Below are positions 19,779 to 44,868 of a stretch of 64,000 nt of DNA, piece by piece; position 1 is the first letter of the stretch; each line of letters opens with the position of its first letter. A program made the translations under genes and the position numbers. A model generated the notes under the pieces. The model was not told the DNA's origin and did no database searches. It saw only the letters and a program-made list of their open reading frames with translations. The stretch is from Chiloscyllium plagiosum. Taxonomy: Eukaryota. The stretch is from contig NC_057719.1 in NCBI RefSeq assembly GCF_004010195.1, forward strand, positions 14,444,364-14,508,363, read 5' to 3'.

Positions 19779-20083
19779 CTGACCATCAGCTGTTTCCTGA
19801 AAGCATCTTCCCACATTCAGAGTTCTGGTTGGTGGTTGTGGTTGTGACTGTGGTTGTGACTGAGGTTGTGACTGAGGTTTGGGCTGGCCGTTTACATTTC
19901 CATTAGCATTAAGCTGTGACCTTTGTTGAACTGAATGGGTTGGCTGTTGCTCCTGTGACAGTTTTATGCTGTTCTTGATTGGAGTGTCAGGTACGGTTTT
20001 AACTCTTGCCACTTGATGAATCTGCACAGTGGCCTCTGGTGGGTGGTTTACGTGGATATTAACCAAGGACGGAAGCATTACAA
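19779..20083 (-). CDS. LTBP2: LTBP2-like internal exon D (linker and start of hybrid domain)
   Basis: Acceptor ttccctacag| and donor CAG|gtaggg; 305 bp, phase 1 to 0. Translates [29 protein letters not shown]...[12 protein letters not shown], containing the LTBP1/2 HPPEAxVQIHQV motif. Confidence 0.95.
19840..19879 (-). repeat. Coding 12-bp tandem repeat giving (QSQP)n
   Basis: ggttgtgactgt/ggttgtgactga repeated about 3.3 times inside exon D. Confidence 0.9.
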
Positions 20084-22315: not shown

Positions 22316-22507
22316 CTTGTTGGTTCGAAAGAGGCAGAGTATACACAGACTGCGAAGCTGATGAACGGGCAGGTACTGTCTTTGACACAGTTTGCTTTTC
22401 AGGAGGAACTGGAAGGTGGCAGAACTTCCCTGTTGAGTTTGATGGGCACCTGCACTTGTCTCTTCCAATGCAGTATCCTCCATTCAGGCAGGGGATCTGG
22501 CAGAAAT
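22316..22507 (-). CDS. LTBP2: LTBP2-like internal exon C (EGF-like domain); absent from ORF track
   Basis: Acceptor gtgttatag| and donor CAAG|gtaatg; 192 bp, phase 1 to 1. Hand translation (Y)[63 protein letters not shown], close to LTBP2 [33 protein letters not shown]...TLPLSNQ. Confidence 0.96.
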
Positions 22508-39068: not shown

Positions 39069-40129
39069 TAGAAGAGCAGGGCATCGACGTTTTAGGCAGG
39101 ACCCTTCATCTCCTTCTCCTCTGATGCTGCTTGACCTGCTGTGTTTTTCCAACTCCACATTTTATCCACCCTGACTTTCCAGCATCTGCAGTCCTCACTA
39201 TCTCCAAGTTGGTGTAAGCAGTGAGCTGCACCAATCAGGTGCCTGCTTGAGTTTCCTCCAGTTGTCTCAATTCTAGCTTGTTTAGCAAGTTTAGTACAAT
39301 ATGCAACTGCATATTAATAAGCAAATCTCCCTTGGTAGCTTTATGGAGGTGGAAGGTGGTTACACTGAGATAAGGAAGGAATGGAAACAGCCTTGAGGAT
39401 CTGAAAATGTGCACGGCATTACTTAACTAGGAGGCAGCATAGTCCAGGGGTGATGTGTGAATTGGATTGTGAGTGACAACACAGAACCTTCAAACATATG
39501 GAAGATGGAATAGGAAAGTATGTTTGATCAGCCCAGTCTATAGATAATGGGGTTACTGATGAGGTTTTCACCAGATCAATGGAAGCAAGGAAGATTCGAA
39601 CACCCCTAGCACATGAAAACCACATGTGGCCTACGTTCCCACCGTGCAGGAAACGATTGAGATTCAGCTCCATAATGGAACTGGTGAAATCCCCGGCCAG
39701 AGACCTGATTGGAGAACTGCCTTTGAACATTGCATCTGAGCTCATAACTTACTCGGGACAGGCAAGTGGGGCTGCTTTTCAAAGTGTATAGAACTCAAGG
39801 ATATCTTTGACTTTTGTCACCAGCTTGAAGTCTGCCCAAAGTTAAAATATTCCTTGAATTGCCCATACACAAGTCTAACAAAACAGTTCAAAGTGATTCC
39901 ATAAAACTGAACCTTCCAGCTCAGTAAGCAAATCTCCACCATGATTCCATTGTTTTACTGAGCTTTACATTAATTAGCCAATTGATCCATTTCCACATAT
40001 TACACCTTGTAACTTCCAAAATATTTAACATTTTGAAACTATAAATGTTTACAAAATAAAGCAACAGAGTGATTTAAAAATGGCTATTCTTGTGCAGAAC
40101 AGTAATCAGAAATAGATACATTTACTTAC

Positions 40130-40300
40130 AGATTCGAAAACCTGATTTGGACACAGGGCCGTAACCATTTTCGCTGTAAAGGGTGGTTGGGTCGCCTTTT
40201 TTACAATTGTTGTAACACTTTCCATTTATACACTGGCGTTTGCAAATAGTTGGCGTGAAGACTATTTTTATTGTTCCTATATTGGTGGTCAGGTTTGCCC
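40130..40300 (-). CDS. LTBP2: LTBP2-like internal exon B (4-Cys region)
   Basis: Acceptor tttcttacag| and donor ATCT|gtaagt; 171 bp, phase 1 to 1. Translates [57 protein letters not shown], matching the LTBP2 motifs [10 protein letters not shown]...TTLYS...KSGFRI. Confidence 0.95.
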
Positions 40301-40355
40301 CTGTAAGAAATAACAATTCAGCAAGTAAGCAAATAAGTACACAGTTGAAAATCAT
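40301..40355 (-). CDS. Putative alternative N-terminus (signal peptide) of a short LTBP2 isoform
   Basis: GCAACA-ATG (A at -3) in frame with exon B, encoding [23 protein letters not shown]. Architecture resembles LTBP1S. Confidence 0.5.
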
Positions 40356-42254
40356 TGTTGCTGAAGAGCTCTGGAGTTGTTGGAGCCAAGTAGAGAGAAT
40401 TAGATTTTGTGAAGGAACAGTTAAGCAACCATGCAGCTGACCTACAATTCTCCAAACCAGGAAGTGGACAGAGTACATTGAGTTTATGTTGGATTATGCT
40501 CCAAAGTCTGAGCGAGGATTGAAATAAAGGGCATGTGGAATGGTGAGTAAGAGGAACACAATGGCAAACTGTGCCAGATCAGTGGCTGTCAGTGGATTAG
40601 TTAAAGACCTCAGCAGAGATTCCAAGTTCAACATGGCTTGTATAATGCAAATTTAAAAAAAAAACGTTCCCCCAGAATATTTCAGTTACTCAGGAATTAG
40701 ATTTGAGTTCAGCAGAATGTGGGCTTTTAAACTGACCCTACCATAGTTAAGTCCTCAGAAATGGTATGTTCTATTCCACTGCATGGTAGTTCAGTGGTTA
40801 GCACTACTGTCTCACAGCACCAGGAATCTGGGTTCAATTCCAGCCTTGAGTGACCATCTGTGTGGAATTTCCACATTCTCCCTTTGTCTGCATTGATTTC
40901 CTCTGGGTGCTCCAGTTTCCTCCCATAGTCGAAAGACTGTGCAGGATAGGTGGATTGGCCATACTAAATTACCCATAGGGTCCAGGAATGTGCAGGGTTA
41001 GCCATGGGAAATGCAGGGTTATAGGGACAGGGTGGGGTCTGGCGGGATCTCTTCAGACAGTCAATATGCACTCGATGGGCTGAATAGCCTGCTTCCACAC
41101 TGGAGGGATTCTATGATTTCTGATCAACTGCTAGCAATGATACTTGATTTAATTCAACTCCTAAAAAAAAAGGTAAAAAGAAAAAAAAAGTCAAACTTAC
41201 TGTTTCTGGATAACTGAAGCATTATTTCTGTATTTTGCAAATAATTTGCATGAACAAAATATGTATTGTTCCTTTGCTGGTGGGCAGATTTCTTCCTCCA
41301 AGAAATTAACAATCCAGAAAAATAACTAAAAAAAAAGAACTCAAAAATCATCATTGCTCCAGAGCGCTGGCGATGTTGGAACTTAATTGAGAAAATTAGA
41401 TTTTGTGCAAATTAGTTGTTATGTAGAAAGTGGCTGCTGGCACCAAAGACTGGATGGAGTGCATGAGATCTACATCAGGTTTATAGTGGCCGATGTATTC
41501 AAACAATGTACTGTTGCAAAATTCTTTTTATTTCTTTGCCACAGCTATTTTAATTAAAAAAACTCAAACATTCTTCACCTCAATGGGTTTCTTGTTGTCA
41601 CCCCTATTTACAATAATGTGGTGCAAGGTCTGTGATGTATATGTTCTCCTCATCTGATTTATTTTAGAATTGGCAATTTGAACCAGTGACATGTAGTTTT
41701 TTGTCTGTGTGTGTGTGTGTGTGTATTTTTTGAGGAGGTTTAACGATTACATTGTCACTATTTCTGGAGCCATGATATTTTTAAACTATTTTCAGAGACA
41801 CAGGAACAGGACATAACCAGTGCATTCCTGTCCACTGTCAATTATAAGAAGATACAAATGTCAAAAGAAACATCTGTTTAAATGTGAAAATACAAATTCA
41901 AGCTTCCCAAAAATAAGTCCGTTTCAGCTTTCAGAATAGATATCATGGAACAAACAGCACAGCAACCCAGAAATGCTCATTTCAAAAAGCACAGGACTGA
42001 AGAACAAATTCAAAATCAACATGAAAACACATTGTGGTGTCTTATGAATATTCATTTAAATAATGTCCAGTTTGTAGCCCAATTATAGCTAGGTGGTTCA
42101 AATCATGTTATAAGAAACAGATATCAAAATATGTCACATAGCCAATCACAATATAACCACACAAATATTCAATACTCAAGACCATTATAGCAGACTCTTC
42201 TGCTCCTCGGACCCTGCCTGACTGGCTCTGCTATTCCAGCACCACACTTTCCAT

Positions 42255-44668: not shown

Positions 44669-44868
44669 CTCGTAACAACGGATGCTCATTTTCGACTAAT
44701 GTTTGCCCATTTGTTGTGAAACGATTCTGGACCCGTGCCTGCCCATTGCCATTAAATAACGCATTTGAGAGTAGCTGTCCATTTCCATTCGATAGATGTT
44801 TCACAGTACGTAATGTTCCAGGCACTTGCTGAGTATTAACAGGCTGTCCATATCTACTCAATGTACTG
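44669..44868 (-). CDS. LTBP2: LTBP2-like internal exon A (N-terminal linker)
   Basis: Acceptor ttttcaccatccag|CAG and donor CGAG|gtgagt; 200 bp, phase 2 to 1. Translates STLSRYGQPVNTQQVPGTLRTVKHLSNGNGQLLSNALFNG...ENEHPLLR and joins exon B in frame (G|GG). Resembles the LTBP2 segment 'SQLSSNAL...LEHP' as I recall it. Confidence 0.8.

Follow-up and report, generated by a model that had tools for sequence, protein, structure and literature searches.

The last 55 bases of intron 4 of the LTBP2 gene of Chiloscyllium plagiosum likely carry the start codon and the signal peptide of a short LTBP2 isoform (LTBP2S), transcribed from an internal promoter in the manner of LTBP1S. The gene lies on the minus strand of the window, i.e. 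the whole stretch of 64,000 nucleotides that was analysed (Table 1). A promoter upstream of position 40355 would give a first exon composed of 5' UTR, leader and exon 5, and signal peptidase is predicted to cut the product after Gly19 or Ala20 (the corresponding site in the paralog L002 is residue 20), which would place Asn21, part of a glycosylation sequon, at the new N-terminus. The secreted LTBP2S would have about 1,550 residues and would be devoid of the 342 residues that exons 1-4 encode, and with them of the first EGF-like domain. With somewhat less assurance, we also regard it as probable that LTBP2S is an expressed, ancestral isoform of jawed vertebrates which sharks, chimaeras and ray-finned fishes have retained and which mammals and most birds have lost. 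The long/short layout would then come from one switch gene, the common ancestor of the four LTBP genes, with LTBP3 having kept the short start only and mammalian LTBP2, its short start lost, being fixed in the long form.

Table 1. Features of the LTBP2 locus in the window (positions of the whole stretch)
Feature	Position	Strand	Remarks
LTBP2 exon 4, last long-form-only exon	44669..44868	-	spliced to 40300
Decayed tandem copy of flank, leader and first 62 nt of exon 5	41234..41503	-	67-77% identity
Putative 5' UTR and internal promoter region	40356..40780	-	assignment inferred; repeats begin near 40780
Candidate short-form leader, predicted signal peptide and intron 4 3' end	40301..40355	-	ATG, 18 codons; pyrimidine tract; AG 40302-40301
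LTBP2 exon 5 (exon B)	40130..40300	-	phase-1 acceptor, phase-1 donor at 40129; common to long and predicted short form
LTBP2 exon 6, EGF-like domain	22316..22507	-	match to P0001
LTBP2 exon 7	19779..20083	-	match to P0001

The LTBP2 locus and the open frame at the end of intron 4

The LTBP2-like protein P0001 of Chiloscyllium punctatum matches exons 4-7 at 92-99% identity, and the three exon-5 paralogs of the C. plagiosum genome (L002, L003 and L004) reach 45-59%. Named LTBP2 proteins match the locus better than the other paralogs, and by these comparisons the locus is the LTBP2 orthologue. When P0001 was mapped on the genome, its residues 1-342 fell to exons 1-4 and the exon called exon B in the preliminary description took the place of exon 5, so that the leader is the end of intron 4. 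The first EGF-like domain (EGF_2, residues 187-214 of P0001) is encoded by exon 3. In a contig of read run X1, an RNA run by guess, exon 4 and exon 5 are joined with the junction in frame, and in a contig of run X11 (RNA by guess as well) exon 5 continues into exon-4-like sequence. Since both contigs join exon 4 to exon 5, the long form uses the acceptor at 40300, and this splicing, as the contigs show, bypasses the leader.

Translation of the minus strand confirmed the features that had been read from the letters, namely the ATG at 40355-40353 with A at -3, the open frame upstream of the exon 5 acceptor, and the leader residues with their small-residue end (T-G-A). The open frame reaches back to 40493 and, in the other direction, runs through the acceptor AG and exon 5 to a stop in the next intron; from ATG 40355 to the acceptor it comprises 18 codons and one base, in frame with exon 5. 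The preliminary description proposed that the leader is a signal peptide. In favour of this are (i) a hydrophobic core with a Kyte-Doolittle 10-residue mean of 2.89, a value that falls among those of the long-form LTBP2 signal peptides (median 2.79 in 58 long-form N-termini), and (ii) small residues at -3/-1 for the predicted cut after residue 19 or 20. Against it stand the lack of a basic n-region in the shark leader and a Glu within its hydrophobic core. Asn21 of the ORF belongs to an N-x-T sequon. The AlphaFold model of the 77-residue ORF was uninformative (mean pLDDT 49.5).

Chance at real acceptors and conservation of the leader

The caveat had been raised that T-rich acceptor regions translate as hydrophobic residues by chance. 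As a control, 103 real phase-1 acceptors of EGF exons were collected from the same genome; 85 remained once near-duplicates had been removed, and 41 of these 85 come from one tandem EGF array. An open stretch of 18 codons was found at 21 of the 85 acceptors and an open in-frame ATG 15-30 codons upstream at three, while the combination of an ATG with a 10-residue mean of at least 2.0 was found at none (0/85). In Markov sequences trained on the last 120 nt of the locus itself, an ATG with a mean of at least 2.7 arose in 0.4%, and the Markov controls overall gave 0.4-2%. When ATG and stops were ignored, three of the 85 controls exceeded the leader in hydrophobicity over a 10-residue window. The leader thus exceeds acceptor chance, whereas its hydrophobicity alone is unexceptional, and the caveat applies to the latter but not to the joint presence of ATG and hydrophobic core. 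That the leader is a T-rich acceptor whose translation after an ATG is hydrophobic by accident is very improbable, all the more so as the same feature recurs in chimaera and ray-finned fishes.

The single-exon model P0035 of the chimaera Callorhinchus shares 10 identities with the shark in the 18-residue leader, and the differences are conservative replacements and a whole-codon gap. Its leader scores 41 (BLOSUM), compared with a maximum of 33, a mean of 14.3 and a standard deviation of 4.0 for the 85 control intron ends; upstream of the Met, 3 of 16 residues also match. In ray-finned fishes, salmonid models and a raw genomic ORF start with a Met 22 codons before the split Gly. The teleost-type genomic contig L063 has an ATG with A at -3 followed by 22 open codons with a hydrophobic mean of 2.57; L064 has no sequence upstream of the exon. 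The similarity between shark and teleost leaders is weak (scores of 15-28), and aligning shark and L063 DNA over the 400 nt upstream gave no meaningful match. At the level of sequence, these comparisons show a leader in frame with exon 5 that has persisted in the chimaera and in ray-finned fishes.

A profile search of 1.84 billion representatives, with the leader contained in the profile, matched 101 proteins. Only new identifiers were counted, giving 27 LTBP2-type rows of the 101 with two long models set aside; the ORF count leaves out the long P0004 and P0049 and rows without the motif. All 15 fish-type LTBP2 exon-5 ORFs not joined to exon 4 have a Met 18-29 codons upstream and a mean of at least 2.0, and most of these leaders start with MQ. 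Because the Met is kept over this range of lengths in 15/15, it moves with the frame. Fourteen of the 15 ORFs extend into the next intron and are, for this reason, genomic. Among amniote-type LTBP2 exon-5 ORFs, a Met with a hydrophobic core was found in 2/10, both marginal (2.0), and the contrast with the fish type is to be read as a pattern with no valid p-value, since the profile held the leader, the assignment to fish or amniote type was deduced from the exon motif, and kinship among the fishes means that they do not count as independent cases; ORF callers, moreover, need a start codon. Three mammal-type genomic ORFs are without a hydrophobic leader, and the positive control, LTBP1-type ORFs, gave a hydrophobic leader in 10/11.

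The survival of the short start in shark LTBP2, as it had been proposed, agrees with these results in that the leader is kept, but it is not a shark-only feature. The proposed check on other chondrichthyans had a partly favourable outcome: the chimaera model retains ATG and frame, as do ray-finned fishes, and this shark is the sole elasmobranch whose DNA upstream of exon 5 was compared.

The Ala-Glu codons of the leader overlap a branch-point-like CTGAA at -21, and the conservation of the leader may in part be that of a splice signal. The stretch could accordingly be read as a conserved intronic splicing element, made up of branch point, pyrimidine tract and regulator sites, perhaps the relic of an ancestral short-form leader that no longer serves as a first exon. 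Such a reading would agree with the branch-point-like word inside the leader, with a constraint that reaches upstream of the ATG, with the long-type joining of exon 4 to exon 5 in all 41 multi-exon models of cartilaginous fishes that contain exon 5 (41/41), and with the open, partly hydrophobic stretch of bird-type ORFs, mostly without a Met, which indicates that a relic can persist. We nevertheless consider it unlikely, since a non-coding element would not hold the Met in frame in 15/15 fish-type ORFs despite lengths of 18-29 codons, and since the differences between chimaera and shark take the form of conservative replacements and a whole-codon gap. A functional short-form leader remains the preferred explanation of these patterns.

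Two peculiarities of the leader region in other vertebrates were also recorded. Five bird-type LTBP2 ORFs (P0306, P0308, P0309, P0312 and P0318) have an open stretch of 22 codons before exon 5 that is partly hydrophobic, and the position of the fish Met is taken by one Met and three Leu; the stretch is possibly a relic or uses a non-ATG start. In teleosts, the QV.VC word of the leaders corresponds to a GT-rich tract, and its conservation, too, may owe something to splicing. L063 (716-782) has a donor-like CAG/GTGGGT 19 nt before the exon-5 acceptor, in a phase that would not join exon 6 in frame, and the QV.VC residues matching this word recur in many fish-type ORFs.

The upstream region, its decayed copy and the transcripts

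The decayed tandem copy sits 1 kb upstream of the intact leader, and a one-base insertion at 41307 breaks its exon-5 frame. Where the two copies differ, it is mostly the intact one that agrees with the chimaera residue, by 6:1 for the leader (one-sided p 0.06) and by 7:1 for exon 5, the leader of the decayed copy having drifted to a T run. As far as such small numbers allow, this suggests that the leader, like exon 5, is under constraint of one kind or another. The constraint is not confined to codons, because over the 56 nt upstream of the ATG the likeness of intact and decayed copy equals that of the exon. The duplication is probably old, given that the decayed copy keeps the Ser seen in other sharks at the position where this genus has Asn25.

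Within the decayed copy (41354-41161, minus strand), ATG ATG and a hydrophobic start are kept and 51 codons are open (to 41201), up to a GTAAGT donor (41200) whose phase matches that of the exon-5 acceptor. These features were noticed post hoc; the copy could represent a second alternative first exon.

Upstream of ATG 40355, further ATGs are present at 40478 (in frame, with T at -3) and at 40432 (a 3-codon uORF), and both would compete with it if the start site lay above them. A short protein might thus be made by another route, i.e. from a separate first exon farther upstream that is spliced into intron 4 above the ATG, from a start at 40478, or from 41354-41201 of the decayed copy as the first exon. 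The frame open to 40493 with its in-frame ATG and the donor in matching phase of the decayed copy are in favour of such a route. Several points make it unlikely: the T at -3 of ATG 40478, the concentration of the matches to the chimaera model from Met 40355 onward, and, for the decayed copy, an open frame that was picked post hoc and has left the frame of exon 5. A start at ATG 40355 therefore remains our preferred reading.

The preliminary description also pointed to an ETS-like motif upstream of the ATG. The word CAGGAAGT is indeed present at 40458-40465 on the plus strand, but it has no value as evidence, as the exact 8-mer occurs in 2.3% of the 300-nt windows of the 64,000-nt stretch and the looser ETS core in 19-28%. 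As promoter evidence the motif was rejected, being a post hoc pick and not above chance.

Among 24 read runs, those guessed to be RNA contain 0.13-0.32 of the sampled words, which is about what exon 5 alone would give, and four runs of unknown kind contain 0.79-0.87. Runs X1, X2, X6 and X19 have no cover at 40322-40495; X2 and X6 are blank over exon 5 too and X19 has a depth of 0.2 there, and this was not counted either way. From runs X8, X10, X11 and X14, a contig was obtained for X11 only. None of the RefSeq models examined, from any lineage, starts with the leader; a start at this point is seen in automatically annotated UniRef entries and in raw ORFs. The models P0142 and P0148 begin with short starts of another kind and were not taken as leaders. 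Annotation pipelines probably tend to drop a first exon that merely extends an internal exon in the 5' direction, and automatic annotation likely misses this class of isoform because it has no unique splice junction.

Paralogs, known promoter switches and the meaning of a predicted short LTBP2

All three exon-5 paralogs of the genome were compared with the LTBP2 locus. In L002 and L003 an ATG stands exactly 55 nt before a phase-1 AG, which is the same distance as in LTBP2, Asn is residue 21, the hydrophobic means are 2.76 and 2.71, respectively, and long-form exons lie upstream on the contigs of both. L003 is presumably LTBP4 and L004 is taken here to be LTBP3. A NumbF synteny search made for the naming of L003 gave one match, on contig C10, far from the window. 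L004 has a signal-like leader directly before the homologous exon, and a search of limited sensitivity for long-form exons on its contig found none. The start of L002 matches the published end of a mouse Ltbp1S primer and probe at 13 of 19 bases (sequences as given in PMC3978911), and from this match L002 is identified as the LTBP1S start.

The LTBP2 leader scores 13-14 against the LTBP1 and LTBP4-like leaders, which is the control level; as judged from these scores, the paralog leaders are alike in position and character, not in sequence. The exact agreement in the 55-nt distance is partly luck, because teleost leaders vary between 18 and 29 codons. A long/short switch that predates the LTBP1/LTBP2 duplication, as had been suggested, is in keeping with the layout shared by three paralogs of one genome. 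With regard to single paralogs, the LTBP3-like L004 (contig C45) appears to be short-only in this shark. The LTBP4-like L003 (contig C51) has an LTBP1-type layout with the AG at codon 19, and long fish LTBP4-type models include the exon.

In the mouse, the promoter, start site and signal peptide of Ltbp1S are placed in intron 4 of Ltbp1L, the first four exons being long-only (PMC3978911, legend of Fig. 1). The shark LTBP2 leader shares this arrangement: it abuts exon 5 in intron 4, in frame, with the acceptor downstream of the leader. The 346 extra N-terminal residues stated for LTBP1L (bioRxiv 10.1101/2021.12.16.473056) compare with 342 residues before exon 5 in shark LTBP2, and the LTBP1 of the shark itself has a leader at the same distance from its acceptor. 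Differences from LTBP1S relate to the paralog concerned, to the leaders, which are not significantly alike, and to the transcript, which is established for LTBP1S and predicted for LTBP2S.

For LTBP4, two N-terminal forms (LTBP4S and LTBP4L) with independent promoters and different fibulin binding are described in PMC4381339 and PMC12527114, and the LTBP4-like L003 has its ATG 55 nt before a candidate acceptor AG in the same phase as LTBP2. The first of these sources describes a 4-Cys repeat as unique to the short form in the mouse, so that, on that account, the mouse long form does not simply splice into the same exon. LTBP3 has a short-type start, with the signal peptide directly before the homologous exon in L004 and in LTBP3-type ORFs. 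Mammalian LTBP2 has the orthologous exon 5 but, in the three mammal-type genomic ORFs, not the hydrophobic leader; the available text on the FANTOM5 CAGE data assigns two start regions to human LTBP1 and LTBP4 alone (PMC4019825).

The leader sequence is already in databases, where some automatic salmonid models start with it, unrecognised as a short form. No report of a short LTBP2 was found in the literature covered. LTBP2S would be a further case of the known promoter switch, being well supported by comparative sequence, with its transcript predicted.

LTBP1L surpasses LTBP1S in matrix entry and fibrillin deposition according to bioRxiv 10.1101/2021.12.16.473056, and high-affinity heparin sites of human LTBP2 are located in its N-terminal region (PMC4532469). 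By analogy with these reports, LTBP2S would enter the matrix less efficiently than the long form and would likely be less tightly bound to it. The same preprint describes the biological meaning of long and short LTBP forms as unresolved, and LTBP2, a gene of glaucoma and the lens zonule, is treated as having one N-terminus. If fish LTBP2S is real, the switch would be a family-wide ancestral feature with lineage-specific losses, and the isoform would offer a natural N-terminal truncation for probing the FUN/EGF and heparin-binding N-terminal region. Fish ltbp2 knockouts aimed at exons 1-4 may, in that case, leave a secreted short form.

Some minor observations concern other exons. The QPQS repeat of LTBP2 exon 7 (19900-19800, minus strand) is six residues longer than in P0001, the closest named protein. 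The skate LTBP2 model P0024 has no exon-5 motif, a sign that a long form may skip this exon. Elsewhere in the genome, near-identical calcium-binding EGF exons (L035-L042) form a very long tandem array on contig C19 at about 5.67-5.99 Mb, and these 320 kb account for about 90 of the genome's 150 best EGF_CA matches.
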